Positions 6,075-24,722 of a stretch of 64,000 bases of DNA are shown here, in pieces. The stretch is from a plasmid: sequence record NZ_CP035507.1; one strand, given 5' to 3'. The notes under the pieces are model-generated. The model was given only the letters and a program-made list of their open reading frames with translations, did no database searches and was not told the origin of the DNA. The stretch's first letter is position 1, and every line of letters begins with the position of its first letter. Made by a program: the position numbers and the translations under genes.

Positions 6075-6548
6075 ATGTCTGCAACGACCATCATCGACTC
6101 AGCCCCCCTCGGGGCGCTTATCCGCTACACCGACGGCAGTCCCAAGCCGCCGCCACGTTTCACCAAGAAGCTTGCGGCCTGGGAGCGCTCGAACGGCGTC
6201 GGTCGTCTCGTGAAGAAGGAACCGCCCAGGGTCTATCCGACCTGGACCGCTCCGGCCTCCTTCACGCTCCATGAGGGGAATTTCTCCTCGGACGGGGTCA
6301 TTCTCGTCACCATCATGCGCAGTCATTCGGCGGATAGCCGTCTGATCTTCGAGGTGGCCGAGGAACCGAAGCCCGGCCAGGTGCGCGTGCTTCTGGACTT
6401 CGGCGGGAATACCGAACTGCTGCATCTGGCGGAGTCCGTCACCGCAGCGGAGCTCTGGATCGCGCGGGAAGGTTATCGCAACGCGCGGCTTGAAATCGTC
6501 GACACTGAGGACGGCGATAGGGCAGGGGGTGCGGACCTGGCCGCCTGA
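6075..6548 (+). CDS. hypothetical protein
   Basis: 157-aa ORF. Preceded by aggatgagga (SD) and a 7-bp inverted repeat aatgcga-N5-tcgcatt. No recognisable motif. Confidence 0.45.
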   Translation: MSATTIIDSAPLGALIRYTDGSPKPPPRFTKKLAAWERSNGVGRLVKKEPPRVYPTWTAPASFTLHEGNFSSDGVILVTIMRSHSADSRLIFEVAEEPKPGQVRVLLDFGGNTELLHLAESVTAAELWIAREGYRNARLEIVDTEDGDRAGGADLAA

Positions 6549-7095
6549 GCCCTGACACTGCGTGAGGGGCCTGCCCATGGGCGGGCCCCTCACCGACCAC
6601 ATGAACCTCGTCCCGCGATGCCGCGGGGCGCAGAATTATTCATCCCCCAATTCGGAGGTTTTCAACCAAGAGTCTGCCCGGGAGGTTGGCGGCGTTAGAA
6701 ACATCAGCGGGACAATTGGCTCCAGTCGTCAGGGCACCTCCCCCGCTCGCCATACCCTTCCTTGCCCCGAATCATGTCTTCGAGATCAACCCGCATGGGG
6801 TCGGACTACGGGCAAGCCCGTGCCGCCGGATGGATTCGGGCGAGCCGAACGCACCCGGTGATGTCAGCCAGTCTTCGGGCCTGCGGGGTCCTGTCGCGCG
6901 GGGGATGGTCCCCCGCCTCCAAGACAGGAGCCAAACAGATGTCCCGCAAAGATGCACACGCCTTCGCCGCCTCCCTCGCCGCCACGCTTATGGTCTCGAT
7001 CGTCGTCTTCGAGGCAGGGGATGGAACCTTTGGCGCCGTCCCCGCCGATGAAATCGACGGCGACGAGGTTGTGATCGTCTCGGAATACGATCCCT
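6538..7095. repeat. direct repeat R1, copy A (~560 bp, ~90% identical to 22208-22760)
   Basis: Aligned by eye with copy B. It contains a 10-bp-stem hairpin (6562-6593), a CCCGCG-ATGC-CGCGGG hairpin, an almost invariant ~115-nt leader, and a 54-aa ORF. Confidence 0.85.
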
Positions 7096-7103
7096 TCGGG
7101 TGA
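6939..7103 (+). CDS. conserved small protein (54 aa; hydrophobic centre, acidic tail) inside repeat R1-A
   Basis: Strong SD acaggagccaaacag ATG. Differences from its paralog at 22606 are mostly synonymous (gca/gct, gcc/gct, ctc/ctt, ggg/ggc, gga/ggt, ttt/ttc), which indicates purifying selection on the protein. Confidence 0.6.
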   Translation: MSRKDAHAFAASLAATLMVSIVVFEAGDGTFGAVPADEIDGDEVVIVSEYDPFG

Positions 7104-7180
7104 GGCTTCGGCCTCACTTCCCGAGGGCCTGGGAAGGGTAGCGGTGCGCCACATGGCCCACCGTGGCCCGATTGATTTCC

Positions 7181-8014
7181 CTAGAATTGCCGATGGATTG
7201 GGCAGCTTTCATCAGCGGCCCAATCGGCAAAGCTCAGGTAGTAGACGCTGACGCTCGAGCGCCCGGAGACCATGGCCGCAAGGGCGGCAAGTGCGGCGCG
7301 ACCCCCGCCGTTGCAGTGGCTGACGATGGGTTTTCCGCCGTCGAGACCCGTCTCATCCAGCATCCGCGCAATGGTTGCCGCTGGCTTCAGGCGCGTTCCG
7401 TCCAGAAGGTCGGCATGGGAGAGGTTCCGTGCACCAGGCAGGTGTCCGCCTCGGCTATTCCCTTTCAGATCCTCCCCGCGATACTCGGCTTGCGTCCTCG
7501 CGTCGAATATCTGCACCCGGTCGAGTTCGTCCTTCAGCGTATTGCGGTCACGCAATCCGACCGATCCCGAACCCGGAACCAGAACAAGCTGTCCAATGTA
7601 CTCCGGAGCCTGCTGTGGAGACATATCGAGAGCATCCACACCACCGTTCAGCACAGCAGCGGGCAGGCCAAAATATTGCAGCATGAACCAGACGCGCGCC
7701 GCTTCGGTCATGCGGCCGTCGTCTATGACGACTGTCAGAGCGTCAGGCCCCAGTCCGAGCCGGGTGAATGCCTCCAGCCAATATGCGTCGTCATCCAGAC
7801 CCGACCGGCTCTTCAGGGCGTGGCGGACCCAATCGGCAATCGGAACGGTCCTCAGTCCCTCGATCTTTTCGTCTGCTGAGGGTACGTAAAGCAGGCGGAT
7901 CGGGCCGAGACCGGCCAGCTCACTCGCTTCAACCAACGGCCGCTGTTCCATCTGGCTGTGGTCCCCTCCAGTTCTTTCCCAAAAGTCGTCGCCATCATTT
8001 AGGCTTTGCGCCAT
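7181..8014 (-). CDS. thiosulfate sulfurtransferase (tandem rhodanese domains)
   Basis: Active-site CNGGGRAA in the C-terminal rhodanese domain. Two-domain architecture. Start codon uncertain. Confidence 0.7.
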   Translation of the reverse strand: MAQSLNDGDDFWERTGGDHSQMEQRPLVEASELAGLGPIRLLYVPSADEKIEGLRTVPIADWVRHALKSRSGLDDDAYWLEAFTRLGLGPDALTVVIDDGRMTEAARVWFMLQYFGLPAAVLNGGVDALDMSPQQAPEYIGQLVLVPGSGSVGLRDRNTLKDELDRVQIFDARTQAEYRGEDLKGNSRGGHLPGARNLSHADLLDGTRLKPAATIARMLDETGLDGGKPIVSHCNGGGRAALAALAAMVSGRSSVSVYYLSFADWAADESCPIHRQF

Positions 8015-8195
8015 TGGTTTCCAATCGGATCAGCTTCTTGCCCTGCGAACGGAGCTGGCAAGGCTCCGGTTCAAGTGATTGACAATCCGCCACCTTCCCG
8101 CGACAAAAAGGCATGGGGATCCGCGACCTCCCCACGAGGCGTCAGCTGAAGATCGCGTTCCATTCCCGAACGATTACTTCCGAGGAGGAACGCAT

Positions 8196-9029
8196 ATGCC
8201 TGCGCCCGACGCCATGTCTTGTGAACAACTTGCCCGCCTCGTGGGCACACCGAAAGCCCCTACCATCCTCGACGTGCGGCGCGAAGCCGTACGGGCGGGC
8301 GATCCCCGCCTTTTGCCTGGCGCGCGCGCCTTGGCCGAGGCAGACCTGTCGCCCGAGGGACTGGCACGGATTGCCGCCGGGTTCCAAGGCCCCGTGGTCG
8401 TGGTCTGCGCCGAGGGCCACCGTTTGAGCCAAGGCACTGCGGCCTGGCTGAGGCATGAGGGTGTGCATGCCGAGTATCTGCTGGGTGGACAGGCCGCGTG
8501 GACGGCGGCAAATCTTCCGCTCATCGACCCCGGCAAGATCACTGCTCGTGATGCACAGGAGCGGTCAATCTGGGTCACCCGGTCTCGGCCCAAAATCGAC
8601 CGCATCGCCTGTCCATGGCTCATTCGCCGTTTCATCGACCCGCACGCGGTGTTCCTGTTCGTGGCACCCGCCGAGGTGCAGGGCGTAGCCGAACGCTTCG
8701 GCGCCATGCCTTATGACATCGAGGGCGTCTTCTGGAGCCACCGGGACGACCTGTGCACCTTCGATGTGCTGCTGGCCGAGTTTGGCTTGTCGACCCCGGC
8801 GCTGGACCGGCTCGCACTGATCGTGCGGGGCGCAGACACGTCGCGTCCCGATCTTGCACCCGAATGTGCGGGTCTGCTGGCGGCTTCGCTGGGCCTATCG
8901 CGCATGTATTCCGACGACCTCGAACAACTGGAGGCAGGGATCGCACTTTACGACGCCTTCTATCGCTGGGCCCGGGACGCGACCGAAGAACAACACAATT
9001 GGCCGACCAACACAGGCAAACAGAAATGA
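8196..9029 (+). CDS. chrB: chromate resistance protein ChrB-like (rhodanese-like plus ChrB C-terminal domain)
   Basis: Start MPAPD with SD gaggagga. Directly upstream of chrA and translationally coupled to it (ATGA overlap). Confidence 0.6.
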   Translation: MPAPDAMSCEQLARLVGTPKAPTILDVRREAVRAGDPRLLPGARALAEADLSPEGLARIAAGFQGPVVVVCAEGHRLSQGTAAWLRHEGVHAEYLLGGQAAWTAANLPLIDPGKITARDAQERSIWVTRSRPKIDRIACPWLIRRFIDPHAVFLFVAPAEVQGVAERFGAMPYDIEGVFWSHRDDLCTFDVLLAEFGLSTPALDRLALIVRGADTSRPDLAPECAGLLAASLGLSRMYSDDLEQLEAGIALYDAFYRWARDATEEQHNWPTNTGKQK

Positions 9030-10393
9030 ACAACGAGACAACCTATCCCACCCTGTCCGAGGCAACGAAGGTTTGGGCGCGTATCGCCGCGCTGTCATTC
9101 GGCGGTCCGGCAGGCCAGATCGCTGTGATGCACCGCATCCTTGTCGAGGAAAAACGCTGGATCGGCGATGGGCGGTTCCTGCATGCGCTGAACTTTTGCA
9201 TGCTGCTGCCGGGGCCGGAGGCGCAGCAGTTGGCAACCTACATCGGCTGGCTGATGCACGGCGTGCGCGGCGCGCTGGTGGCGGGGCTGTTGTTCATCCT
9301 TCCCGGGATCGTGGCGATCATGGCACTGTCCTGGGTCTATGCGATCTGGGGCGACGTGGGCTTTGTCTCGGCGCTATTTTTCGGGCTGAAGGCGGCGGTG
9401 CTAGCCATCGTCCTGCAGGCCGTGGTGCGGGTGGGCAAGAGGGCGCTGAAGAACGTCGCGATGCAGGCCATCGCGGCGGCATCCTTCGTCGCAATCTTCG
9501 CCTTTGCCGCGCCCTTCCCACTGATCGTCGCAGCAGCGGCGCTGATCGGCTGGGCGGGTGCAAAGGCGGGACTTGCGGCGTTTCAGGGCGGCGGCGGACA
9601 CGGATCGGTCGGCAAGACCCATGTGGATGATGCGACCACGCTTCTGGGCGAGGAACATGGCGACCTCACCGGCGCGGCCCGTGCGAGCGCCTTCCGCGCC
9701 GGGGCAGCCGCGTTGGTTCTGTGGGTTCTGCCCGTGGCCGCGCTGGTCCTGCTGGCGCCCGGCAGTGTCTTTGCCGACATCGCAACCTTCTTTTCGAAAC
9801 TCGCGGTTCTGACCTTCGGCGGCGCCTATGCGGTTCTCGCCTGGGTCGCGCAGGAGGCGGTGGGCACCTATGGCTGGCTGGAACCGGGCGAGATGCTCGA
9901 CGGTCTTGGCATGGCCGAGACGACACCAGGTCCGCTGATCATGGTTCTTCAATTCGTGGGATTCATGGGCGCGCTTCGTGAGGCGGGCTGGGCCGCGCCG
10001 CTTTTGGCCGGAACACTCGGCGGGCTCCTTGCCACCTGGGTCACCTTCGCGCCCTGCTTCGCGTGGATCTTCCTCGGTGCACCGTTCATGGAGCGGCTGC
10101 GCCAAAACCGCGCGCTGTCGGCGGCCCTTTCGGCTGTAACAGCGGCGGTGGTCGGCGTGATCCTCAACCTTGCCATCTGGTTCGCGATCCACGTCGTTTG
10201 GCGCGAGGTGGCGCGTGTGGAGGCCGGCCCACTGTCACTCGAACTGCCGATCATCGCCTCGATCGACTGGGCTGCGGCGATCCTGTCCGCCTTGGCACTG
10301 CTGGCGGTCTTCCGGCTGAAACTCGGGATGGCCACGGTGTTGGGTGGGGCCGCCGCGCTCGGTGTGGCGCTACATTTGGCGGGACTTGTCTAG
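9026..10393 (+). CDS. chrA: chromate transporter ChrA (CHR family)
   Basis: Start MNNETTYP at 9026. CHR signature FGGPAGQIAVMHR. Duplicated-halves architecture; about 455 aa. The upstream part of the track ORF (from 8753) overlaps chrB and is not coding. Confidence 0.8.
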   Translation: MNNETTYPTLSEATKVWARIAALSFGGPAGQIAVMHRILVEEKRWIGDGRFLHALNFCMLLPGPEAQQLATYIGWLMHGVRGALVAGLLFILPGIVAIMALSWVYAIWGDVGFVSALFFGLKAAVLAIVLQAVVRVGKRALKNVAMQAIAAASFVAIFAFAAPFPLIVAAAALIGWAGAKAGLAAFQGGGGHGSVGKTHVDDATTLLGEEHGDLTGAARASAFRAGAAALVLWVLPVAALVLLAPGSVFADIATFFSKLAVLTFGGAYAVLAWVAQEAVGTYGWLEPGEMLDGLGMAETTPGPLIMVLQFVGFMGALREAGWAAPLLAGTLGGLLATWVTFAPCFAWIFLGAPFMERLRQNRALSAALSAVTAAVVGVILNLAIWFAIHVVWREVARVEAGPLSLELPIIASIDWAAAILSALALLAVFRLKLGMATVLGGAAALGVALHLAGLV

Positions 10394-10399
10394 GCGGGA

Positions 10400-11707
10400 T
10401 CAGGCAGCCTTCGGCCAGCGGCGATGCAGGTCGTCGATCACTACGACGTGGGTGTGGTGCTCGCCATGCTCGACCAGATGCGGGTGTCCCGGTGGAAGGT
10501 CCGGGTGGTCATGCGGGAGGACTGACTCGTCGTTCGCGGGCCACAGGTGCCAAACGGCAGCAAGGCCCGCCGTTCCGATCATAGCCAGAGTAACTGCGGC
10601 CGTTGAGAGCCCGGCTCCCGCACCGATCCAGCCAGCAAGAGGATAGGTGACCAGCCAGCAGGCGTGAGAGAGGGCGAATTGCGCGGCAAATACCGCGCCC
10701 CGGTCGGCCTCGCGCGCGGATCGGTTGATGATCCGTCCGATGGGCGTTTGCGTCAGTGAAAAGCCGAAGCCGATCACGGCCCAAAGCGCGATCAGCGCGG
10801 GAAGGCTGCCCACCAGGGGCACCAGCGCGACGCCTGCGACCATCAGGGCAGCGCCACCGATCATCACGGAGCGGTCTTCCAGACGGTTCAGGATGCGCGG
10901 CAGAAGGAAGGCCGCCAGCATCGACCCCGCGCCAAAGCCTGCAAAGGCGAGCGCCACGGCTTCCTCGCCCAGTCCAAGCCGGGCCTGCACCAGAACGACC
11001 GTGTTGACGTAAACCATGGCTCCAGCTGCCGCAACGGCGGCCTCCATCACCATCAGCCCGCGCAAGCGGGGGGTGCGGATGTAGATGCGGATGCCCTTGG
11101 TCACGTCGGCCCAGAAGTGGTCGGGTTCTGCCTTCGCCCGCGCGGGCAGGCGCGCTGTCACGACCAGAAGGGCCGAGGCGATGAAGCCCGCGACCGTGCC
11201 CAGAAACAGCACCGGGAAGCTGACGACCGTCAGCAGGGCCGCTGCCAGCATGGGCGAGGCGAGCTGTTCCAGATCTTCGGCAAGCCGAAGGAGGGACAGG
11301 GCATGGGTGTAGTCATCCTCGTCCTTCAGGACGTCTGGGATGACCGCCTGGAAGGCCGGGGTGAACCCGGCAGAGGCGGCCTGCAGAAAGAAGATCAGTA
11401 CATAGACCTGCCAGACCTGATCCACGAAGGGCAGGAAGGCAATCACGCCCGCCCGGATCAGGTCCAACGCCACAAGGAAGGCCCGACGTGGCAATCGCTC
11501 GGCGATTGCCGCCGCCAACGGGGCCAGCGTCACATAGGCCACCATCTTGATGGCAAGAGCGGTGCCGAGGACCGCCCCCGCATTGTCGCCCGCCAACTGC
11601 CAGGCCAGCAGCCCAAGCGCCACGGTGGCCAGCCCCGTGCCCACCAGCGCCACGATCTGCGCGGCGAAGAGATGGCGGAAGCTCGGGTTTCTCAGCGTGG
11701 ACAGCAT
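10400..11707 (-). CDS. MFS transporter with His-rich C-terminus (NreB-like Ni/Co efflux candidate)
   Basis: MFS N-terminus. C-terminal PHDHPDLPPGHPHLVEHGEHHTH. Immediately downstream of an RcnR/CsoR-family gene. Confidence 0.6.
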   Translation of the reverse strand: MLSTLRNPSFRHLFAAQIVALVGTGLATVALGLLAWQLAGDNAGAVLGTALAIKMVAYVTLAPLAAAIAERLPRRAFLVALDLIRAGVIAFLPFVDQVWQVYVLIFFLQAASAGFTPAFQAVIPDVLKDEDDYTHALSLLRLAEDLEQLASPMLAAALLTVVSFPVLFLGTVAGFIASALLVVTARLPARAKAEPDHFWADVTKGIRIYIRTPRLRGLMVMEAAVAAAGAMVYVNTVVLVQARLGLGEEAVALAFAGFGAGSMLAAFLLPRILNRLEDRSVMIGGAALMVAGVALVPLVGSLPALIALWAVIGFGFSLTQTPIGRIINRSAREADRGAVFAAQFALSHACWLVTYPLAGWIGAGAGLSTAAVTLAMIGTAGLAAVWHLWPANDESVLPHDHPDLPPGHPHLVEHGEHHTHVVVIDDLHRRWPKAA

Positions 11708-11965
11708 TTACAGGAGCTTCGTCAGGGCCTTGATCTCGGCCAGATCATGTGTGCCCTCGCCAGTCAGGCAGTGGTCGATGTGATCGTGGATCAGCGCCCG
11801 CTTCGCCTCGGCCACGGCGCGTTCGACGGCATGCAGTTGGGTCGCCAGATCGACGCAGGGCCGTCCCTCCTCGATCATGCCGATGACGCGGCGCAAATGC
11901 CCCTCGGCGCGCTTCAGCCTAGTGGCGATGGCAGGGTGGCTTGCGTGGGTGTGATCTTCCGGCAT
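11708..11965 (-). CDS. RcnR/CsoR-family metal-sensing transcriptional repressor
   Basis: 85 aa. DUF156-type helix pattern (RLKRAEGHLRRVIGMIEEGRPCVDL...HAVERA) with conserved His/Cys. Confidence 0.7.
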   Translation of the reverse strand: MPEDHTHASHPAIATRLKRAEGHLRRVIGMIEEGRPCVDLATQLHAVERAVAEAKRALIHDHIDHCLTGEGTHDLAEIKALTKLL

Positions 11966-12030
11966 ATACCCATGCTATCCCCCCAGGGGGGATGAGGCAA
12001 GAAGCGAAGCGGGGTCAACCCGGCAGGACA

Positions 12031-12387
12031 ATGATGCGGGCAGCGGAACCAGCATGGCGGGGGGTAAGGACGCTTTGGGCGGTCCTATGCCTTGCTCTGT
12101 CGCTGGCCATTGCCCCCACCGTTGAAGCCGTCAAGCATGGTCCGGGGGCGATGGCGGCAGAGGCCGACCACCGCGCTTATCACGCTGAGCATGGCCATGC
12201 ACATGACATTGCTGGTGCGGATCATCACGATTCAAGCGACCACGACCATGTCGGCGCCGCGCTGCTCGCACCGCCCGGGGCGGAAGTTCCCCCGCCACCC
12301 GAGCGGACGCTGCGCCCGGACTCCCTTGTGGCCTCCGGCACCATCCGTGATGGCCCGCGACGGCCGCCCCGACTGACGTTGATCTGA
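12031..12387 (+). CDS. secreted His-rich small protein (candidate periplasmic metal-binding protein)
   Basis: Signal-peptide-like MMRAAEPAWRGVRTLWAVLCLALSLAIAPTVEA. His clusters follow (HRAYHAEHGHAHD...HHDSSDHDH). Confidence 0.45.
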   Translation: MMRAAEPAWRGVRTLWAVLCLALSLAIAPTVEAVKHGPGAMAAEADHRAYHAEHGHAHDIAGADHHDSSDHDHVGAALLAPPGAEVPPPPERTLRPDSLVASGTIRDGPRRPPRLTLI

Positions 12388-12439
12388 GCCGCCGCCCGGC
12401 ATCCAGGGCGGTCCGATCTCTCACGTCAGGAAACATCAC

Positions 12440-13165
12440 ATGATTCAGTTTTTTCGGGCGCACTGGCGCCCCCCGATGCCATGGCAGGCGCTGATCGCCC
12501 TCGCCACGCTGTTCACCGCCCTGCTGCTTGCAGGCGCGGCCCTTGCCCACAACGTCACCGAAGGCGACGCAGGGTACGTGCAAGAGGTGACGGGCTTTCG
12601 CCCCATCGCCTTCATCTACCTCGGCGCCAAGCACATGGTGACGGGCTATGACCACCTGCTGTTCCTCGCCGGGGTGATATTCTTTCTCTACCGGGCGAAG
12701 GACATCGCCACCTACGTCAGCATCTTCGCCATCGGCCATTCGGTCACGATGATCGCCGGTGTCTGGTGGTCCATCTCGATCAACGCCTACATCATCGATG
12801 CGATCATCGCCTTTTCGGTGGTCTACAAGGCGCTCGACAACCTCGGTGCCTTCCGCCTGTGGTTCGGGGTGCAGCCGAACACCAAGGCCGCGACGCTGAT
12901 CTTCGGCCTGCTGCACGGCTTTGGTCTGGCGACCAAGATTCAGGATTACGACATCTCGGCCGACGGCCTTCTGGGCAACCTCATCGCCTTCAACCTGGGG
13001 GTCGAGCTTGGCCAGTTGATGGCGCTCGCCCTGATCCTGACGGCGATGACCCACTGGCGGGCGCGGCCTGCCTTCGCGCGGCAGGCCTATGCCGCGAATG
13101 TCCTGATGATGGTGGCTGGCTTTGCCCTGATGGGCCTGCAGATCACCGGCTATTTCGTCGCCTGA
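12440..13165 (+). CDS. HupE/UreJ-family Ni/Co transporter
   Basis: HxxxGxDH signature (AKHMVTGYDHLLFLAGV). Polytopic membrane protein of 241 aa. Confidence 0.65.
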   Translation: MIQFFRAHWRPPMPWQALIALATLFTALLLAGAALAHNVTEGDAGYVQEVTGFRPIAFIYLGAKHMVTGYDHLLFLAGVIFFLYRAKDIATYVSIFAIGHSVTMIAGVWWSISINAYIIDAIIAFSVVYKALDNLGAFRLWFGVQPNTKAATLIFGLLHGFGLATKIQDYDISADGLLGNLIAFNLGVELGQLMALALILTAMTHWRARPAFARQAYAANVLMMVAGFALMGLQITGYFVA

Positions 13166-13181
13166 AAGGAGGGCGAGACCG

Positions 13182-15845: not shown

Positions 15846-15870
15846 CATGCCAGATGCTCGGGAGACTCTC

Positions 15871-16545: not shown

Positions 16546-16581
16546 CCGCCCATGAAATTCACACAATCAGGAGAACTCAAG

Positions 16582-17076: not shown

Positions 17077-17193
17077 GACCCGGATGGCCGCGCGGTTCAG
17101 CCGCGCGGCCACGTCCGTTTGTCGCCTCGAAATTTCTTGAGCGTCCAGTGACTGGAACCCCTATACTGGAACGGCGAGGTCAGGAGATGCTCC

Positions 17194-17592: not shown

Positions 17593-17611
17593 GCGTCAGG
17601 AGATCGGAACG

Positions 17612-17719
17612 ATGATGGGCGACGGCATGATGTGGAGAATGGGGCTGTGGGGCGTGGTGGTCGCCATTCTCGTGGTGCTCGTCGTTGCGGCTCTGGTCAA
17701 AAACGTCTTCTTTCGCTGA
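17612..17719 (+). CDS. possible small membrane peptide (35 aa)
   Basis: SD caggagatcggaacg ATG. Single hydrophobic helix MMGDGMMWRMGLWGVVVAILVVLVVAALV. Confidence 0.25.
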   Translation: MMGDGMMWRMGLWGVVVAILVVLVVAALVKNVFFR

Positions 17720-18219
17720 TGGCAGAGTCGTGGCGCAGTCGGGGGCACCGGATGCCGGTCAAACCGCTCTTGCCCGGTCGGCATCCGTTGCCTGCATTCT
17801 CCCTGATGATCGGGCTCATGCCGGTTCCGGCTGCGGCGTTCCTCCACGCGTCCGAGACGGACACCGAGTCCGGCCGCGCGCTTTACGTCGAGCACCGCGC
17901 GGCCTGTCACGGCGTCGATCTGCAGGGACAGCCCGGCTGGCGCAGCCCCGACGCCAACGGCCTCTATCCGGCGCCGCCCCATGACGAGACGGGCCACACC
18001 TGGCATCACGACGACGCGATGCTCATCGACTACATCGCCCGAGGCGGTCAGGCCGTTCTGGACGACATGGGCGTGACCTTCACGTCGGGCATGCCGGGCT
18101 TCGGCTCCGTGCTGGACCAAGGCGAGATCGAAGCCATCCTGGAGTACATCAAATCAACCTGGCCCCAGCACATTCGCGACGCGCAGGCGCAGCGGTCGAA
18201 CGCGGCCTCCGCTGATTGA
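17719..18219 (+). CDS. cytochrome c-like protein with a degenerate haem-binding motif (RAACH instead of CxxCH); start uncertain (17719 or 17752)
   Basis: Class-I cytochrome c context GRALYVEHRAACHGVDLQG. Codon CGC sits where TGC is expected. Confidence 0.4.
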   Translation: MAESWRSRGHRMPVKPLLPGRHPLPAFSLMIGLMPVPAAAFLHASETDTESGRALYVEHRAACHGVDLQGQPGWRSPDANGLYPAPPHDETGHTWHHDDAMLIDYIARGGQAVLDDMGVTFTSGMPGFGSVLDQGEIEAILEYIKSTWPQHIRDAQAQRSNAASAD

Positions 18220-18235
18220 TCGCCATCGGATTGAG

Positions 18236-18847
18236 TCAGACCTTCCGGAAGAGCGAGAAGTGGAACCGCTGCACGCTGTCCCACGGCGTGCGGTGTTCGT
18301 GGCCCAGCGATCGGACGAGCCGGTATCCGCTGCCCAGCCGTTCCGAAAGCAGGGCCGCGTCAAAGCGCGCGACCGGCAGGCCGCTGCATTGCGTCGGGCC
18401 GTCGGGCGCGAAGGTTCCGATGATGGCGTGGCCGCCGGGGAGCAGGGCGCGATCCATGACCCGCAGATAGGCGTCCTGGTCGGCGGCCCCCGTCAGGAAG
18501 TGGAACGCGGCCCGATCATGCCAGACGTCGAAGCGGACGGTAGGCTGCCAGTGCAGGATGTTCGCCACCACCCATTCGACCGGCGCATCCTGAGGCAGTC
18601 GCGAGCGGGCTTTCGCAAGAGCGGTGTCTGAGAGGTCGAGCATAGTTATCCCGCGGAACCCCTGTTCCAGCAGGCAGTCCACCAGCCGAGAGGATCCCGC
18701 GCCGACATCGACGATGGCCGCGTCCTTGCCCACGCCCGTCGCGGCGATGAGATCGAGCGAGACCTGCGGCCGGTCCTCGAACCAGCTTGTCTCGGCCTCC
18801 TCCTTGCTCTGGTAGACGCCTTCCCAGCGGTTCGGTGTTTCGGCCAT
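18236..18847 (-). CDS. class I SAM-dependent methyltransferase (TPMT/TehB-like)
   Basis: Motif I VDVGAGSS. 203 aa. Confidence 0.65.
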   Translation of the reverse strand: MAETPNRWEGVYQSKEEAETSWFEDRPQVSLDLIAATGVGKDAAIVDVGAGSSRLVDCLLEQGFRGITMLDLSDTALAKARSRLPQDAPVEWVVANILHWQPTVRFDVWHDRAAFHFLTGAADQDAYLRVMDRALLPGGHAIIGTFAPDGPTQCSGLPVARFDAALLSERLGSGYRLVRSLGHEHRTPWDSVQRFHFSLFRKV

Positions 18848-18857
18848 CGTCAGGCCC

Positions 18858-21224
18858 TCACAACTCGATCCGCCTGAGCCGCAGCGCGTTGGTGATCACC
18901 GAGACGGAGGACAAGCTCATCGCCGCCGCTGCGATCATGGGCGACAGCAACATCCCAGTGAGGGGGTAAAGCAGCCCGGCCGCGACCGGCACCCCGAGCG
19001 TGTTGTAGGCGAAGGCAAAGAACAGGTTCTGCTTGATGTTGCGCAGGGTGGCGCGGGCGAGCTTGCGGGCCCGGACGATGCCCATGAGGTCGCCACCCAG
19101 CAGGGTAATCCCGGCGCTTTCCATCGCCACATCCGCGCCGGTGCCCATGGCGATGCCGACATCGGCGGCGGCCAGCGCGGGCGCGTCGTTCACCCCGTCG
19201 CCCGCCATGGCGATCTTGTGGCCATCGCGGCGCAACTGCTCAATCAGGTCCTTCTTGCCCTCGGGCAGGATGCCCGCGCGCACCTCGTCGATGCCGAGCT
19301 TGCCCGCCACCGCCTGCGCCGTGCGCTCGTTGTCGCCCGTCGCCATGAGCACCCGCAGCCCCTGGGCATGAAGTTCCCTGATGGCCTGGGCGGTGGAGTC
19401 CTTGATCGGGTCGGCTACCGCCACAATCCCGGCAAGCGCGCCATCGACCGCGACGAACATCGCCGTCTTCCCCTCGGCCCGCAGCGTGTCCGCCTTCACC
19501 TCGGCCGCACCCGTGTCCAGCCCCATCTCCCGCATCATCGCGGAATTGCCGAGCGCCACCGAGCGTCCGCCGACCTTACCGCGCACGCCCTTGCCGGTGA
19601 CCGCCTCGAAGTCGGCTGCATCCTGACGCGACGCACCCTGCGCCTCGGCGCCCTCGACGATCGCCTCGGCGAGCGGGTGTTCCGAACCGCGTTCCAGCGC
19701 GGTGGCCAACGACAGCAGCTCTGTCTGCGGCAGGTCCGCAAGCACCACGGTATCCGTCAGCTTCGGCTTGCCCATGGTCAGCGTGCCGGTCTTGTCCACG
19801 ATCAGGGTATCGGCGCCCGCCATGCGCTCCAGAGCCTCAGCGTCCTTGATCAACACACCCGCCTGTGCCCCGCGCCCGGCCGCCGTTGTGATCGAGATCG
19901 GCGTCGCCAGTCCCAGCGCGCAGGGACAGGCGATGATGAGGACCGACACGGCCGAGGCGATGGCGAAGACCAGCGCGGGTTCCGGGCCCACGGTCAGCCA
20001 GACGACGAAGGCGACGATGGCGATGACCACCACGGTTGGCACGAACACCGCCGACACGCGGTCGGCCATGCCCTGGATCGGCGCGCGCGACCGGCGCGCG
20101 TTCGCCACCATCGCCACGATCTGTGCGAGCACAGTGTCGGACCCGACCTTGCCCGCCTCGATCACGAGAGAGCCGTTCTTGTTGATCGTGGCCCCGGTCA
20201 CCGCATCGCCCGGGCCTTTCTCGACCGGCATCGACTCGCCGGTCAGCATGCTCTCGTCCAGTGCCGATCGCCCCTCTATTACCGTCCCGTCGACCGGGAC
20301 CGCATCGCCGGGGCGGACGCGCAGCCTGTCGCCTGCCATGATGTTTTCCAGCGGCGCGTCGTATTCGGTACCGTCCGGCAAGATGCGCCGCGCGGTCTTG
20401 GGCGCGAGGTCCAGAAGGGCGCGGATCGCGTCGCCGGTTCGTTCTCGCGCGCGCAGCTCTAGCACCTGGCCCACGAAGACCAGCGCCACGATCACCACTG
20501 CCGCCTCGTAGTAGGTGCCGACCCCGTGGCCCATCCGGTAGGCGTCCGGGAACACGCCGGGCAGGAAGGTCGCGACCAGCGAATAGAGATACGCCGCGCC
20601 CACCCCGAGGCTGATCAGCGTCCACATGTTGGGCGACCTGTTCACAACCGACTCCCAGCCGCGCCGGAAGAACGGCAGCGCCGCCCAGAGGATGATCGGC
20701 GTCGCCAGCACGAACTCGAGATAGCTGGCCGTCTGGTGGCCGACCCAGTCACGCACCGGCAGCGCCACCAGCTCGCCCATCGTCAGAATGATGAGCGGCA
20801 CCGCCGCGGCGGCCGAGATCCACATCCGCCGCGTGAAGTCTGTCAGTTCCTCGCTCGGCTCGTCCGAGGGGACCATCGGCTCCAGCGCCATGCCGCAGAT
20901 CGGGCAGGCTCCCGGCGCATCTCGGACGATCTCCGGATGCATCGGGCAGGTGTACTGGACGTTAACCGGGGCGGCCTTCTTGCGGCCAGCGGCGCGGCCC
21001 GAGGCGTAGAACCACGGATCGGCCCTGAACTTCGTCTGGCACTTGCCCGAGCAGAAATGGAAGTCCTTGCCGCCGAAGTTCTCGGTCCGAATGTCCGGCT
21101 TCAGGGTCACCGTCATGCCGCAGACGGGGTCGATGTCCGTCGGGCCGGTTGCAGGCGCATCGTGTTGCGTCGGCATTTCGTCGTCGGTGCGGACGTGGCT
21201 TGCGTGGGGATCGACGGTGGACAT
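18858..21224 (-). CDS. copA: Cu+-translocating P1B-type ATPase CopA
   Basis: Start MSTVD with SD gaaaggagaacgtc. Motifs CPC ([13 protein letters not shown]), [18 protein letters not shown]-terminal YHS/TRASH (VCGM...HFCSGKC) and CPMHP...CPICGM metal-binding modules. Confidence 0.9.
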
Positions 21225-21284
21225 GACGTTCTCCTTTCGCGGACCGTGCCGCGCGAAGGCCAAGGCATGGCCTTCGATGCCAAT

Positions 21285-21316
21285 GTGGACCTTCCCGCGA
21301 CTGGAAGGTCAAGGCC
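21285..21316 (-). promoter_or_regulatory. CueR-box promoter upstream of copA
   Basis: The minus strand reads TTGACC-TTCCAGTCGCGGGAAGG: a -35 element followed by a perfect CCTTCC-N7-GGAAGG dyad, ~60-90 nt upstream of the copA start. Confidence 0.6.
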
Positions 21317-21425
21317 AGATGAGACCTGACCCCGAGCATTGCGCGACGAAGCTGATGGGCTATCGTCTGATGGCCCCGCTATCGTAACGCATACGCACGA
21401 TTGCGGCTCGGAAAGGTTTTCTCTG

Positions 21426-22127
21426 ATGAGTCGTCTGTCGCATTCAGAAATCCACATGGTGCATCGCATCGGCTGGTTGCGGGCTGCCGTTCTCGGGGCG
21501 AATGACGGCCTCGTCTCAACTGCGAGCCTGGTCGTAGGGGTCGCCGCGGCCGGATCTGGTCGTCCCGAAATCCTGATCGCCGGACTTGCCGGCCTCGTCG
21601 CCGGAGCGATGTCGATGGCTGCCGGCGAATACGTCTCTGTCAGTTCGCAGACCGATGCGGAACAGGCCGACATCGCCCGCGAGACGCGCGAGCTGAAGAA
21701 TACGCCCAAGGCCGAGCTCGACGAGCTCACACGTATCTATGTCGGGCGCGGGCTTGACGAAGGTCTCGCACGGCAGGTCGCGCTTCAGCTGACCGAGAAG
21801 GACGCGCTTGGCGCCCATTCGCGTGACGAGTTGGGCATCTCGGAAACTGTGACTGCGCATCCGATCCAGGCCGCCCTCGTTTCGGCGGCAACCTTCGCCG
21901 TCGGCGCGGTCGTTCCCCTTATCATCTCGGCCCTCGTGCCTGCCGCTCAGATAACTCTCATCGTCGCGGTCACTACTTTGATCGCGCTGTCGGTGCTGGG
22001 CGGGCTCGGTGCCTCAGCCGGCGGTGCGGGGATCGTCAAGGGAGCCGTCCGCGTCACCTTCTGGGGCGCGCTCGCCATGGCAGCGACAGCAGCAGTCGGT
22101 ATGCTCTTCGGCGTGACGGTCGGGTAG
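21426..22127 (+). CDS. VIT1/CCC1-family (vacuolar iron transporter-like) Fe/Mn transporter
   Basis: Start MSRLSH. VIT motif GANDGLVSTASLVVGV. Five TM helices. Confidence 0.65.
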   Translation: MSRLSHSEIHMVHRIGWLRAAVLGANDGLVSTASLVVGVAAAGSGRPEILIAGLAGLVAGAMSMAAGEYVSVSSQTDAEQADIARETRELKNTPKAELDELTRIYVGRGLDEGLARQVALQLTEKDALGAHSRDELGISETVTAHPIQAALVSAATFAVGAVVPLIISALVPAAQITLIVAVTTLIALSVLGGLGASAGGAGIVKGAVRVTFWGALAMAATAAVGMLFGVTVG

Positions 22128-22207
22128 AGGATGTCGTGAGAAGAACTGTCGGCCTTGATGATGCGCTCTTGCACCGCATCCGGTTCCTAATGCCAGGGGC
22201 GCAGACA

Positions 22208-22760
22208 TGGCCGCCTGAGCCCTGACAAGGCGTGAGAGGCCTGCCAACCGGCGGGCCTCTCACCTACCACACCCTCGTCCCGCGATGCCGCGGGGCACCA
22301 AGGATCCATCCCCCAAGACGGAGGTATTCAACCAAGAGCCTGCCCAGGAGGCTGGCGGCGTTCGAAGCATCAGCCGGACAACCGGCTCCAGTCTTCAGGG
22401 CACCATCCCCCGCTCGCCATTCCCTTCCTTGCCCCGAATCCCGCCTTCGAGATCAACCCGCGAGGGGTCGGACTACGGGCAAGCCCGTGCCGCCGGGTGG
22501 ATTCGGGCGAGCCGAACGCACCCGGTGATGTCAGCCAGTCTTCGGGCCTGCGGGGTCCTGTCGCGCGGGGGATGGTCCCCCGCCTCCAAGACAGGAGCCA
22601 AACAGATGTCCCGCAAAGATGCTTACGCTTTCGCCGCCTCCCTTGCCGCCACGCTCATGGTCTCGATCGTCGTCTTCCAGGCAGGCGATGGTACCTTCGG
22701 CGCCGTCCCCGCTGATGAAATCGACGGCGACGAGGTTCAAGTGATCGCTGAGGTCGACCC
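22208..22760. repeat. direct repeat R1, copy B
   Basis: Same architecture as R1-A. The hairpin at 22232-22263 carries a compensatory G-C to A-T pair change. Confidence 0.85.
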
Positions 22761-22770
22761 GTGGGCATAA
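22606..22770 (+). CDS. conserved small protein, paralog of 6939..7103 (R1-B)
   Basis: Same SD and leader. 54 aa. Mostly synonymous differences from copy A. Confidence 0.6.
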   Translation: MSRKDAYAFAASLAATLMVSIVVFQAGDGTFGAVPADEIDGDEVQVIAEVDPWA

Positions 22771-22917
22771 GGCCCACGGTTTGTCCCGAGAGCTCGGCAT
22801 CGGGGCAGGGTCCCCGATCCGGTCCGTTCGGCTTTCAGACCTCTCGGTGGCCCGGAAATCTGAGCCGACGCGGAGGTCGGCACGACTGCCCAAGGAGCCG
22901 AACGCCCGGTGTCGAGT

Positions 22918-24012
22918 TTACGGTCCGCCCGAAACTTCGAGGAAGAGTTTCACCAGGGCGACGTTGATGAAGTAGTTGTGCTTTCCAGAGCGATGCTTTT
23001 CGACAAAGCCCTGCTCAGCCAAAGTATCGAGATACTTCGCGGCCGTCTGCCGACTGACATCCAGATCGTTTTGCAGATATTCGATCCGGGTGTAGGGATG
23101 GCGAAACAAGTTGTTCAGAAGTTCCTGGCTGTAAATCTTCGGCAAGTCTTCACGTAGCCGATGCTTCACGTCCGCCATTTGCTGTCGGATGCCGGTGACG
23201 ATCTCGACTGTTGTGGCAGAAGTCTCTGCAACGGCCTCCAGCATGTAGATGACCCAGGGTTCCCAATCGCCCGTGTCGCGCACCGCCTGAAGGTGCCTGT
23301 AGTAGTCCGCTTTGTTACGGGTGATGAACCGCGACAGGTAGAGCACCGGGATGTCGAGCAACCCCGTTCTGGTCAGATAAAGTACGTTGAGGATGCGCCC
23401 GATACGTCCGTTCCCATCCGGAAACGGGTGGATGCTTTCGAACTGATGATGGATCAAAGCCATCTTGATGAGCGGATCGAGATCGCTGAGTTCATCGTCG
23501 TTGATGAACCGTTCGAGCGCTGTCATGTGGCGGACAATTTCATGCGCATCCTGGGGGGGAACGAAGACGATCTCCCCTGTTTGCTCGTTCTTGAGCGCGG
23601 TGCCCGGTGTCACGCGAAATCCGTCACTGCGGCCCTTCAGCAAGCGGAACATGTCGATGAGCGCCGAATTCGGGATGAGGCCGCCGGTTTCGCCCAAACG
23701 TGCGTATCCAAGACGCAAGGCGTCGCGATACAGCGCTACTTCTTTGGCCGCCGGGGACTGCGGATCGTCAGGGAAAACATCCGCCTGAAACAGTTCATCC
23801 TGCGTAGTGACGATGTTTTCGACTTCCGACGAAGCTTTGGCTTCCTGAAGAGCCAGCGTGTCGATCAGGATGCCTTGGTTCGGAATGGTCTTGGCCTGAC
23901 CCTTCAGATCCGCAAGCGCGCGGCTGGCGCGAGCGAGCGCCTTCAGGACCGGAACGGTTTCGATCTCGGCCGGGGGTGGCAGGGCGGGAATGGCGTAGGT
24001 CGGCTTTAACAT
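22918..24012 (-). CDS. Fic-family protein (AMPylase/Doc fold) with C-terminal wHTH
   Basis: Fic motif HPFPDGNGRIGR. 364 aa. Confidence 0.85.
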   Translation of the reverse strand: MLKPTYAIPALPPPAEIETVPVLKALARASRALADLKGQAKTIPNQGILIDTLALQEAKASSEVENIVTTQDELFQADVFPDDPQSPAAKEVALYRDALRLGYARLGETGGLIPNSALIDMFRLLKGRSDGFRVTPGTALKNEQTGEIVFVPPQDAHEIVRHMTALERFINDDELSDLDPLIKMALIHHQFESIHPFPDGNGRIGRILNVLYLTRTGLLDIPVLYLSRFITRNKADYYRHLQAVRDTGDWEPWVIYMLEAVAETSATTVEIVTGIRQQMADVKHRLREDLPKIYSQELLNNLFRHPYTRIEYLQNDLDVSRQTAAKYLDTLAEQGFVEKHRSGKHNYFINVALVKLFLEVSGGP

Positions 24013-24131
24013 GTGCTCCGCGTTGTGTTAAGAAATCATCGTTTTTGTAACATGATCGAACGGTCGTGTCAGCAAAAACCGCTTTCCTTAACTTGGGCCA
24101 TGCTTCGCCCGGGCGGGGTCACCCAACTCCG

Positions 24132-24449
24132 TCAGACCGCCAGAGCGCTCGGGTCCTTGCCGGCGTTGATGTGGTCTGCTAACCACTGCGGTTTCCGGGC
24201 TCGGCCAGACCAGGTGATGCCTGCGTTCTCAGGGTGACGGTATTTCGCCACGGCTGGTGCACGGGTCTTCTTCACCTCAATACCGATCAGTTCGGCAAGG
24301 GAGTAGCCCATCTCCTTGGCGACGGCTTCCAGCTTGGTGCGGGCTTCGGCCTTGTGACGGTCCTCATAGGTGGAAATCGCTTTGGCGAGGTCCTTCTGCA
24401 ATTGCCGCAGTTCCTTGAGCGACATCGCTTCGAGATTGAAATCAGCCAT
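24132..24449 (-). CDS. H-NS-family nucleoid-associated protein (copy 2)
   Basis: TWSGRARKPQW motif. The N-terminal 60 aa are almost identical to copy 1. Confidence 0.7.
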   Translation of the reverse strand: MADFNLEAMSLKELRQLQKDLAKAISTYEDRHKAEARTKLEAVAKEMGYSLAELIGIEVKKTRAPAVAKYRHPENAGITWSGRARKPQWLADHINAGKDPSALAV

Positions 24450-24722
24450 TGGGCCCTCGTGTCCTGAATGATGCGTCCGGGATAGCCGTCAGGTTGCAGC
24501 ATCGCAACTCCCGTGGAGGTCACCGCAATAGGGCAGGGGGATGAGGTTGGCTTGAGTCGCCGGGTCGATGCTCTCGAAAGGGCTTCAACCCCGTTACCTT
24601 GGCCAGGAAGGTCGAGTTCTGCGAGAGCCCCAGGTCGCCCCTATCCCCGGTGCCATCCCTTCGACTGACAATCCCCTAAGCCTGTTCGGCCTCTGGCGCG
24701 CAACCCCGCGTCAGTCCGGGCC
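24210..24722. repeat. direct repeat R2, copy B
   Basis: See R2 copy A (14250-14762). Confidence 0.8.

Follow-up and report, generated by a model that had tools for sequence, protein, structure and literature searches.

The window analysed here, a 64,000-nt stretch of a plasmid (record NZ_CP035507.1), is the replication-proximal start of a Paracoccaceae/Rhodobacterales plasmid of the RepABC type. Its only long repeats are two interleaved pairs, R1 and R2, both direct, as found by self-BLAST (a self-comparison that the first-pass annotation had proposed) and by a repeat search, which returned no long inverted repeats in the window. R1-A (6526-7077, plus strand), the left flank of slot 1, is 90.3% identical to R1-B (22196-22747, plus strand), the left flank of slot 2, over 556 aligned columns that include 8 gap columns. 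R2-A (14215-14768) and R2-B (24174-24727), the plus-strand right flanks of slots 1 and 2, share 91.5% identity over 554 nt with 0 gaps. The longest identical runs between copies are 125 nt (R1) and 77 nt (R2), and chance matching is excluded because the matches extend over about 550 nt at E = 0.

Pfam assignments bear out the order that had been read from the letters alone, namely R1-A, chromate and Ni-Co genes, R2-A, copper genes, R1-B, fic and R2-B. Cargo X in slot 1 (7104-14172; Pfam, Rfam and gene calls on an identical JGI contig) comprises a rhodanese (7181-8014, minus strand), a chrB-a RNA motif (8110-8198; Rfam), chrB (8196-9029), chrA (9026-10393), an MFS gene (10400-11707, minus strand), an RcnR-like repressor (11708-11965, minus strand), HupE/UreJ (12476-13165) and a 286-aa protein (13182-14042). 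Cargo Y (15162-22195; Pfam and gene calls on identical contigs) is a copper/metal module with genes for DUF411 (15162-15635, minus strand), HMA (15871-16068), a 125-aa protein (16168-16545), DUF305 (16552-17076), CueR/MerR (17194-17592), cytochrome c (17752-18219), a methyltransferase (18236-18847, minus strand), a P-type ATPase (18858-21224, minus strand) and VIT (21426-22127). The cargo of slot 2 is a single 364-aa gene of the Fic/DOC family (22918-24012, minus strand; Pfam Fic_N, Fic and SoFic-like_C). Pfam detects no transposase or recombinase gene in 6526-24727, and cargo Y holds no backbone relic.

On the left, R1-A starts just inside a backbone gene, hyp157 (6075-6548, plus strand, 157 aa in the ORF list; the JGI record lists a precomputed Pfam match, UCP036055), 23 nt before its stop codon, and R1-B is preceded only by those last 23 nt (translated as ‘GADMAA*’). 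Both the position of the boundary and the survival of a mere relic in copy B had been recognized previously. Within R1, a non-coding core (6709-6945, plus strand) is predicted to fold into a long imperfect hairpin that takes in the ribosome-binding site and ATG of a small ORF. The minus-strand DNA of the core folds with z = -3.4, the profile of the core also matches its own reverse complement, and two different insertions at the apex of the predicted hairpin both keep the pairing. The core matches no Rfam family. The small ORF (plus strand, 54 aa on translation) occurs here as an A-type allele (6939-7103) and a B-type allele (22606-22770), and its last 8-9 codons lie outside the R1 repeat. It is a real gene: among 103 distinct sequences, variation at codon positions 1, 2 and 3 is 0.6, 0.8 and 10.0%, and the protein combines a single hydrophobic segment with an acidic tail. 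The adjoining core is better conserved than the synonymous sites of this gene (mean minor-allele fraction of 2.5-2.8%, compared with 10% at third codon positions).

On the right, the two genes of the H-NS family, each of 105 aa, are hns1 (14173-14490; Pfam Histone_HNS, E = 1.3e-15) with an A-type C-terminal tail and hns2 (24132-24449; translation) with a B-type tail; homologues of hns2 are annotated as H-NS in Fuscovulum and Neotabrizicola. Both lie on the minus strand, which is why the first-pass annotation misplaced them at 14250-14762 and 24210-24722. R2 therefore consists of the first ~92 codons of hns and, on the ssb side, 278 nt of the sequence upstream of it. The ssb gene (24872-25276, plus strand; annotated as SSB in relatives and, on the identical contig, matched by Pfam SSB) is the backbone gene that usually comes next after R2. 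As had been noticed, R2 identity ends inside the hns coding sequence, so that the last 13-14 codons differ (...ADALASSKTADQMEI in one gene and ...ADHINAGKDPSALAV in the other). R2-B is continuous with ssb; R2-A is cut off before it, and in relatives the same sequence continues into ssb.

Searches of public genomes place these flanks in a plasmid family. The order hyp157, R1, small ORF, slot, hns and ssb occurs at more than 120 places; R1 matches 95 and R2 76 PLSDB plasmids, and a match to a 29-mer of the R1 core is present in more than 120 genome contigs, almost exclusively from Rhodobacterales. Full-length hyp157 lies upstream of the core in 109 of 126 cases on other replicons. As read from these alignments, the family backbone is a parB-like gene, hyp157, the structured non-coding element, the 54-aa ORF, the slot, hns and ssb, and the accessory-gene hot spot of the family is the gap left between the small ORF and hns, whose 3' ends converge on it. 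Single-slot versions, for which a comparison with related plasmids had been suggested, were found, as were empty ones (loci L076, L097, L038 and L065). Slot length ranges from ~200 nt when empty to 13.5 kb, and the contents are unrelated from plasmid to plasmid. In Martelella plasmid CP020332, R1 and R2 enclose a slot of 2.6 kb, and a Tabrizicola MAG has an X-like module inverted within the slot. The region is a clear but fairly ordinary case of accessory-gene shuffling between plasmids.

The fic cassette records how such shuffling proceeds. It is 98-99.6% identical to that of a Fuscovulum ytuae plasmid, compared with 87-94% for the flanks: there are ~30 mismatches in total over ~22500-24180, as against 10-20 per 100 nt outside, and the identity break at 24180 is the edge of R2. 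Because the cassette is so much closer to Fuscovulum than its flanks are, it bears the mark of exchange by flank crossovers. As judged by such comparisons, homologous recombination in the conserved flanks carries cargo from one family plasmid to another, and the recombination tracts extend into the small ORF and hns at their 3' ends, giving the A-type and B-type allelic tails. We see no sign of a dedicated exchange mechanism.

The proposal that homologous recombination between conserved flanks around a variable cargo site built this region accounts for the shared flanks and the exchange signature of fic. It does not extend to the tandem form, because a double crossover in shared flanks swaps cargo only and two junctions here, J3 and J4, are non-homologous. 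At J3 (14768/14769), where homology to R2-B stops at 14768, R2-A meets a 5'-truncated and frameshifted pseudogene of a yqjG-type glutathione S-transferase (GST; 14769-15127, plus strand; six-frame translation, weak GST_C_2). At J4 (22195/22196), 68 nt past the VIT gene, the copper module ends and intergenic DNA meets the last 23 nt of hyp157.

Could the arrangement be an assembly artefact, which the first-pass annotation had named as grounds for rejecting the duplication, with a repeat joined wrongly or two plasmids that occur together fused into a chimera? Many short-read contigs of the plasmid do end inside R1 or R2 (L132-L134, L139 and L140), and one contig (L135) follows a different path through R1. 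Against this, the copies differ by 9-10%, J3 and J4 lie in unique rather than repeat sequence, and both junctions recur on contigs from different samples: a 41.6-kb JGI contig (100% identical over 11426-32127), an NCBI MAG contig (95.9%) and a Logan contig (95.2%). Since the same junctions are found in at least three other samples, some of them 4-5% diverged, we give an artefact practically no credence and treat it as excluded.

Several comparisons bear on whether the two units share an origin within this plasmid. R1-A is most closely related to loci L110 and L055 (95.7%); 28 loci are nearer to R1-A than R1-B is, and 55 are nearer to R1-B than R1-A is. The A-type and B-type C-terminal alleles of the small ORF are each common to other plasmids, the B-type also occurring in plasmids of Fuscovulum, Neotabrizicola and R. 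xanthinilyticus. We infer from these relationships that the A and B units have separate origins. Tandem duplication in situ of R1, slot and R2, followed by divergence and cargo replacement, would fit direct repeats in the same order and the fact that R2-A and R2-B are nearly each other's closest relatives. It is nevertheless very improbable: it is contradicted by the dozens of other plasmids nearer to each R1 copy, the tails of the small ORF and of hns fall into different allelic classes that other plasmids also have, the B unit matches a Fuscovulum plasmid at 94-99% identity and the A unit a Gemmobacter denitrificans plasmid at 89%, and duplication would leave no truncated GST and 7.4-kb copper module between the copies. 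Later gene conversion may explain the kinship of the R2 copies, whose identical run of 77 nt lies directly at J3; the kinship blurs the case for separate origins of R2.

We consider it likely that the double slot is a recombinant of two family plasmids, joined through the copper module by non-homologous junctions. One parent would have carried metal cargo with an A-type hns, as in G. denitrificans, in which R1, MFS/rcnR/hupE/p286, hns(A) and ssb follow one another and the single slot matches the right half of X (89% over 10404-14768). The other would have carried fic with a B-type hns, as in F. ytuae, in which R1, fic, hns(B) and ssb are 94.3% identical to 22196-25321 and the alignment (L001) starts exactly at 22196, the left edge of R1-B. 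As J3 and J4 are non-homologous, joining the parents through the 7.4-kb copper module would also require one of two steps. A single crossover in shared backbone could have formed a cointegrate from which the redundant replication/establishment backbone was then deleted, a route that would need two deletions unless one junction pre-existed in a parent; or a one-step insertion could have been anchored by homology on the left and completed on the right by illegitimate joining 23 nt ahead of the hyp157 stop codon. The path cannot be traced from the relatives found, none of which has just one of the two junctions J3 and J4. PLSDB contains no close relative of the copper module in a backbone setting, and left-backbone identity is too mosaic for placing a left crossover.

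Integrative elements at tRNA and other genes bring their own copy of the target 3' end. Had a site-specific recombinase placed a mobile element in R1 or in the hyp157 3' end, this would likewise explain why the repeat starts inside a gene end and why copy B holds only a relic. Five other genomes (G. denitrificans and four MAGs) have a second R1 after a 98-108-nt hyp157 relic, directly following a large tyrosine-recombinase-like gene and a Fic gene, and the identical JGI contig encodes a tyrosine recombinase and a resolvase upstream of repA. We find this origin quite improbable here, given that 6526-24727 lacks a recombinase gene, that R1 repeats of 552 nt at 90% are unlike short identical att cores, that the relic varies in length (23 versus 98-108 nt), that J3 falls inside a truncated pseudogene and that the edges of slot homology differ among plasmids (query starts 43, 50, 60, 100, 152 and 163).

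The ~550-bp direct repeats should be able to recombine again in the present plasmid: R1-A with R1-B would delete 15.67 kb and leave a fic-only form, and R2-A with R2-B would delete 9.96 kb and leave a metal-only form. The sole candidate read-out of such events is L135, an ENA contig of 2454 nt that matches the end of Y, J4 and the left part and core of R1-B at 100% identity, continues through a mosaic small ORF and then matches the start of X, again at 100%. This joint is the one expected of a circle or tandem array, and the 15.67-kb R1–X–R2–Y segment might accordingly be a self-contained unit that can circularise and enter family plasmids through a single RecA-dependent crossover in either R1 or R2, with its two backbone fragments as mobile homology arms. 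One such crossover into R1–fic–R2 would yield the observed order, and the segment is kept with both junctions in samples 4-5% apart. Even so, this origin seems unlikely: the segment has no replication or excision function and has been seen in one context only, always beside the same B unit. L135 itself could be chimeric. Its source is a short-read assembly at k=119, and with an identical run of 125 nt common to both R1 copies, a chimeric or bubble-merged assembly path is plausible.

The region has parallels elsewhere. IncP-1 plasmids have two insertion regions, oriV-trfA and tra-trb, that serve as accessory hot spots of the backbone. There, as here, family members carry unrelated cargo at one fixed site flanked by two conserved backbone genes, empty and multiply loaded versions exist and metal resistance is frequent cargo. 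IncP-1 cargo, however, is mostly transposon-borne with recognisable ends, whereas the cargo in the window has no transposase and the clearest signal is homologous flank exchange reaching the 3' ends of both flanking genes. Cointegration through homologous recombination with subsequent deletion, and the homology-facilitated illegitimate recombination reportedly described by de Vries and Wackernagel in 2002, likewise leave xenologous direct repeats around an inserted segment, with one side explicable by homology and other junctions non-homologous (here the truncated GST and the 23-nt relic), although the replication or transfer backbone of a second replicon has left no remnant in this case.

The small ORF and its leader also invite comparison with hok/sok-type loci, which are plasmid type I toxin–antitoxin systems. 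They differ in that there is no Rfam match and no recognised antisense RNA here and in the long acidic tail of the peptide; the apparent likeness lies in a peptide of ~50 aa with one hydrophobic segment, a long structured leader predicted to pair with the ribosome-binding site and start codon, and nucleotide conservation above the synonymous-site level.

Plasmid fusion and modular composition are documented for pMM259 of Martelella mediterranea, a composite RepABC plasmid of the Rhodobacterales and of the same plasmid family (PMC5613091). That study concerns whole-replicon fusion rather than a tandem slot, and a term search of its text found no mention of H-NS or a hot spot. Conjugative plasmids have repeated copies of single-stranded-DNA promoters (Frpo/ssi) in their leading regions (PMC11541004). 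R1 departs from them in that search and inspection found no -35/-10 consensus in its stem, that the window has no oriT or relaxase to set a leading strand and that more than half of the R1-carrying PLSDB records are typed as non-mobilizable. It resembles them in that the core is a predicted long imperfect intergenic hairpin upstream of an ORF, present in two direct copies and on the same strand as ssb and other backbone genes.

Self-comparison of the 64-kb window (GC 64.4%) revealed only two long repeat pairs, both direct. R1, the left flank of each slot, lies at 6526-7077 and 22196-22747 (R1-A and R1-B; 552 nt, 90.3% identity with 8 gap columns), and R2, the right flank, at 14215-14768 and 24174-24727 (R2-A and R2-B; 554 nt, 91.5% identity, ungapped). 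Slot 1 holds genes for a rhodanese, ChrB, ChrA, an MFS transporter, an RcnR-like repressor, HupE/UreJ and a 286-aa protein (p286). The interval between R2-A and R1-B carries a copper module with DUF411, HMA, DUF305, CueR, cytochrome c, methyltransferase, P-type ATPase and VIT genes, and the cargo of slot 2 is fic. The repeat order and gene content proposed in the first-pass annotation were confirmed by this comparison and by domain matches; its hns coordinates were wrong, as both hns genes lie on the minus strand, at 14173-14490 and 24132-24449. R1 is made up of the last 23 nt of a 157-aa backbone gene (hyp157), a hairpin, ~390 nt of non-coding sequence and the initial ~46 codons of a 54-aa open reading frame (ORF), and includes runs of 125 and 33 nt that are identical between the copies. 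R2 is made up of hns codons 1-92 and the 278 nt upstream of hns, with identical runs of 77, 57, 47, 26 and 25 nt.

The product of hns1 has a C-terminal H-NS DNA-binding domain (PF00816, E = 1.3e-15, residues 68-105), and the motif TWSGR(G/A)RKPQW is common to hns2 and hns1. The two paralogues are ~94% identical across the first ~92 residues (6 differences), a stretch that includes the N-terminal oligomerisation part, and differ in C-terminal tails of 13-14 residues; they could form mixed oligomers. An Rfam scan of the whole window gave a single match, to the chrB-a RNA motif (RF03078) at 8110-8198 (62 bits, exceeding the gathering score). The match ends 2 nt inside chrB (8196-9029, as called on an identical JGI contig), as expected of a cis-regulatory leader.

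The repeats belong to the backbone of a widespread plasmid family. The window starts with repA, and its repABC part is 99-100% identical to plasmids of Neotabrizicola shimadae and Gemmobacter fulvus. Downstream of repABC, the plus strand encodes a 747-aa ParB-like protein and then hyp157; after slot 2, it continues with ssb, a DUF932-type gene, RadC, DUF6878, an Xre/RES toxin-antitoxin pair, a strawberry-notch helicase and a Toprim protein. The annotations of complete plasmids from Fuscovulum, Haematobacter, Celeribacter, Neotabrizicola, Gemmobacter, Thioclava and Rhodobacter follow the order repABC – parB-like – hyp157 – small ORF – variable cargo – hns – ssb. In PLSDB, R1 matches 95 plasmids and R2 matches 76, and a 29-mer of the R1 core matches at least 120 genome contigs, nearly all from Rhodobacterales. 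Among the matches listed, full-length hyp157 lies upstream of 109 of 126 R1 cores. The shared order and the many matches across replicons indicate that R1 and R2 are conserved backbone flanking a variable site.

Slot length, taken from the small-ORF end to hns, ranges from ~200 nt to 13.5 kb (48 cases with the R1 core and hns in one stretch, among the matches listed). Empty slots, with ~200 nt between the two stop codons, were found in Tabrizicola sp. M-4 plasmid p1 (L076) and at three other loci (L097, L038 and L065), and the commonest slot size, ~1.3-1.45 kb, is that of a slot with fic alone. At the other end of the range are an 11-kb slot of metal genes (P-type ATPase/Nramp/SCO) in Haematobacter pOT1-5, an 11-kb Celeribacter slot (two-component/PepSY/ATPase/VIT) whose P-type ATPase–VIT end adjoins a truncated hns, and a 13.6-kb slot in G. 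fulvus p4 with oleate hydratase, CDF, catalase, VIT and two IS elements. Cargo is thus unrelated between replicons, comprising fic, metal, two-component/PepSY, oleate hydratase and Ni-Co modules; TIR, DUF262, ThiF/E2, ImmA/IrrE and nucleotidyltransferase/HNH occur as annotation names beneath further joined R1/R2 matches. With flanks in many replicons, an empty site and unrelated cargo, the slot is an accessory-gene hot spot, and this places to the base the hot spot of a widespread marine and freshwater Rhodobacterales plasmid family.

Close relatives of the slot 1 chromate/Ni-Co cargo or of the copper module in this backbone context were not found in PLSDB; the best matches were 74-87% identical over single genes only, so the donors are not identifiable there. 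Two plasmids considered as further tandem examples were rejected. The Thioclava GXIMD4215 plasmid has a single fic slot and a degraded hns. Rhodobacter xanthinilyticus pEJ01, which has multiple R1 and R2 copies and is typed with two replicons, has a single ordinary slot in the region examined; its other copies lie elsewhere and are not in tandem at that slot.

The unit formed by R1-B, fic and R2-B provides a view of how cargo may be exchanged. Relative to a Fuscovulum ytuae plasmid, it has ~30 mismatches across ~22500-24180 (0-3 per 100 nt over most of this stretch), which covers fic and, on either side, the B-type tails of the small ORF and hns. Mismatches in the flanks reach 13-14 per 100 nt in the left part of R1 (10-21 with R2 included) and 10-21 per 100 nt in R2-B, and the right identity break, at 24180, coincides with the left edge of R2. 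The small ORF and hns each have two C-terminal alleles, every one of them shared with other plasmids; those of the small ORF (…VVIVSEYDPFG and …VQVIAEVDPWA) travel with the neighbouring cargo. Near-identical cargo between diverged flanks is the pattern that would be expected of cargo swapping by crossovers inside conserved flanks. The identity discontinuity and the shared tail alleles together support this idea, which was the core of the first-pass annotation.

The two units of the window appear to have come from different plasmids, as R1-A and R1-B are not mutual closest relatives: among the matches listed, at least 28 loci are closer to R1-A than R1-B is (best 95.7%), and at least 55 are closer to R1-B than R1-A is (best ~94%). 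Single-slot versions in related plasmids, suggested earlier as a check, exist for both units. Gemmobacter denitrificans JM10B15 has the order hyp157 – R1 – MFS – rcnR – hupE – p286 – hns (A-type) – ssb and is 89% identical to 10404-14768; compared with it, the window has an insertion, the chromate part at 7133-10403. In Fuscovulum, R1 – fic – hns (B-type) – ssb is 94.3% identical to 22196-25321, and the alignment begins exactly at 22196.

Both joints between the units are non-homologous. At the first (J3, 14768/14769), R2-A is cut at 14768, before ssb, and joined to a yqjG-type glutathione S-transferase pseudogene (14769-15127) that lacks its 5' half, is frameshifted and starts where the R2-A backbone homology stops. 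At the second (J4, 22195/22196), the copper module stops 68 nt past the stop codon of VIT and abuts the final 23 nt of hyp157. A simple Campbell-type cointegrate was rejected: only the 7.4-kb copper module, without backbone genes, separates R2-A from R1-B, and with J3 and J4 non-homologous and the backbone absent, such a cointegrate would need extra deletion or illegitimate steps. We found no transposase, recombinase, long inverted repeat or backbone relic in 6526-24727. A composite transposon or IS-mediated translocatable unit was set aside on the lack of a transposase domain, of any inverted repeat of at least 60 nt and of anything recognisable at J3 or J4. An integrative element with a site-specific recombinase was likewise set aside, as no recombinase is encoded in this interval and the repeats, at 552-554 nt and 90-91.5% identity, are not short identical att sites. 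Rather than a pure product of flank recombination, the tandem form is a recombinant whose junctions J3 and J4 are both illegitimate; recombination between shared flanks, as proposed, is supported for the swapping of cargo and does not by itself account for the tandem arrangement.

Two histories would be the simplest. A single crossover between two family plasmids may have been followed by deletion of the redundant backbone, or donor DNA may have been inserted in one step, with a homology anchor in parB, hyp157 or R1 and an illegitimate join at 22196. Here the two routes are indistinguishable because left-backbone identity is too mosaic and none of the relatives has only one of J3 and J4. The left crossover could not be placed for the same mosaicism, seen in tiled identity against seven relatives.

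Second copies of R1 occur elsewhere in the family, downstream of ssb in G. denitrificans (NZ_JBALHR010000006.1, 112001-128000; L026+L095) and in four metagenome-assembled genomes (L018, L101, L125 and L015). The arrangement is ssb, an 813-aa tyrosine-recombinase-like gene, a 400-aa Fic gene, the last 98-108 nt of hyp157 and then the second R1 with its small ORF; in G. denitrificans, the cargo that follows is found in the primary slot of other plasmids. Duplicated, 5'-truncated R1 units thus recur in this plasmid family, with breakpoints that vary by case. Their recurrence beside a tyrosine-recombinase-like gene makes a recombinase-mediated route a minor rival explanation for the second R1 copies in those five genomes. 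This route does not fit the window, as 6526-24727 contains no such gene, and we keep to the recombinant with illegitimate J3 and J4 as the explanation for the window. In Haematobacter pOT1-5, the recombinase-like and Fic genes follow ssb without a second R1. The plus-strand 400-aa Fic gene shows no relationship at the DNA level to the fic of the window.

The tandem form is present in other samples. A 41.6-kb JGI metagenome contig encodes the exact VIT and rhodanese proteins and is 100% identical to 11426-32127; its left part matches back to repABC and continues into a toxin-antitoxin pair, a resolvase and an integrase. The NCBI contig VFQR01001553.1 (L131), from a metagenome-assembled genome, is 95.9% identical over 11414-22663 and has both J3 and J4; an IS110-family element at 11239-12763 of this contig (at window position 22663) lies within the small ORF of R1-B and disrupts it. 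For Logan contigs of other runs, identity is 95.2% and 99.9%, and several short-read contigs terminate inside R1 or R2, as expected for a repeat. The suspicion that the duplication was an assembly artefact was not borne out, as the same junctions are found on independent JGI, NCBI and Logan contigs. The tandem form is neither an artefact nor new in the population.

One 2454-nt contig (L135; ENA ERZ27263055 k119_5547) matches the end of the copper module, J4, and the left part and core of R1-B at 100% identity; it continues through a mosaic small ORF in which A and B sites are mixed and then matches the start of the slot 1 cargo, also at 100% identity. Such a joint is as expected of a circle excised by R1-A × R1-B crossover, a tandem array or a circular donor unit, and we regard it as no more than a lead. 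A chimeric path of the k = 119 assembly would explain it equally well, as the R1 copies have a 125-nt run in common and bubble merging at small k can yield mosaics. Given the identical runs in R1 and R2, RecA-dependent deletion of 15.67 kb (through R1) or 9.96 kb (through R2) from the window plasmid is plausible, and either deletion would return it to one of the natural forms with a single slot.

The finding is real, and the first-pass annotation interpreted it largely correctly. Accessory-gene hot spots, mosaic plasmids and cointegration with deletion are textbook plasmid biology, and the understanding of plasmid evolution is unchanged. The empty, single-loaded and double-loaded slots are natural examples of the swapping and stacking of metal-resistance and Fic modules. 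They are of use for annotating such plasmids and predicting unstable regions, with the ~550-bp direct repeats predicting losses of 15.7 or 10 kb. Rhodobacterales RepABC plasmids are known to be modular and able to fuse (PMC5613091, PMC5513947); a limited term search of papers on these plasmids found no description of the slot, the hns/ssb flank or the R1 element. The part that could matter more, and is most worth follow-up, is the R1 element.

R1 contains a non-coding core (6709-6945 and 22376-22612), and nhmmer found only these two copies in the window. The core is followed on the plus strand by the 54-aa small ORF (6939-7103 and 22606-22770), annotated only as ‘hypothetical’, whose product has one hydrophobic segment, FAASLAATLMVSIVVF, and an acidic tail. 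Across 103 distinct sequences among the matches listed, variation per site in the small ORF is 0.6%, 0.8% and 10.0% at codon positions 1, 2 and 3; the low values at the first two positions indicate a real gene under strong purifying selection. The 199-nt upstream core has a minor-allele fraction of 2.5-2.8% (2.8% without the retrieval 29-mer; 103 distinct sequences, many genera) and, compared with 10% at third positions, is more constrained than synonymous sites. Conservation on this scale (~4-fold above third codon positions, in more than 100 replicons of many genera) suggests that the core must have a function. An imperfect hairpin of ~230 nt is predicted for the core on either strand, in which the ribosome-binding site and start codon are paired; the DNA fold of the minus strand scores z = -3.4, and the core profile matches its own reverse complement. 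Among 110 sequences, 1 of 50 predicted pairs has a double change (covariation term -0.28 kcal/mol), a measure that is uninformative here since the sequences are nearly invariant; only two different apex insertions, of 14-16 nt, bear on the structure, and both lengthen the stem.

By analogy, there are two candidate functions. The small hydrophobic peptide gene under purifying selection resembles hok/sok, and the core and small ORF may be a hok-like type I toxin locus with a structured leader. An Rfam scan of R1 at permissive thresholds gave no family match, only chance microRNA hits. The core may also be an Frpo/ssi-like single-stranded-DNA promoter, a class described for leading regions (PMC11541004), as it is a long imperfect intergenic hairpin directly upstream of an ORF on the backbone strand. 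Such promoters have -35/-10 elements reconstituted in the stem. A consensus scan of both strands of R1 found no sigma-70-like pair; alphaproteobacterial promoters deviate from that consensus. The window has no relaxase or oriT, and 53 of the 95 R1-bearing PLSDB records are typed non-mobilizable, a majority that does not favour the promoter reading. A broader reading, to which we give little credence, is that the R1 hairpin and the 54-aa membrane-peptide gene form an undescribed functional module of alphaproteobacterial plasmids that, through its extreme constancy of sequence, serves as a universal homology arm for RecA-dependent cassettes, including the 15.67-kb unit. If so, the module could act in plasmid stability, as a type I toxin-antitoxin-like locus, or as a single-stranded-DNA promoter, R1 with hns would let the 15.67-kb metal unit and other cargo hop between family plasmids, and circular or tandem intermediates, as hinted at by the 2454-nt contig, would be part of cassette movement.

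Between ssb and the DUF932-type gene, at 25330-27711, the backbone has a second variable spot. In the window it is occupied by two minus-strand genes, one for a beta-lactamase-family protein (445 aa) and one for an AraC regulator; Neotabrizicola and Haematobacter have ChrB/MFS/TauE at this spot, along with as much as ~13 kb of other genes. A Rhizorhabdus plasmid match that ended at the R2 boundary was a query-limit effect, as the homology runs on into ssb. In Rhizorhabdus wittichii DC-6, the sphingomonad catabolic plasmid pDC03 (CP021184.1, L005) carries at 12001-12521 a 521-nt fragment that is 97.7% identical to 24406-24924 (the 5' ends of hns and ssb with the intergenic region between them), closer over this stretch than any Rhodobacterales relative. 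Farther along, the plus strand has a series of very large genes (42754-60349) resembling a defence island of the DISARM type; they encode an SNF2/ResIII helicase (1065 aa), an Eco57I/N6 methylase (1662 aa), a 282-aa protein without a Pfam match, a DEAD helicase with MZB/DUF1998 (2142 aa) and a UvrD-like helicase (723 aa).
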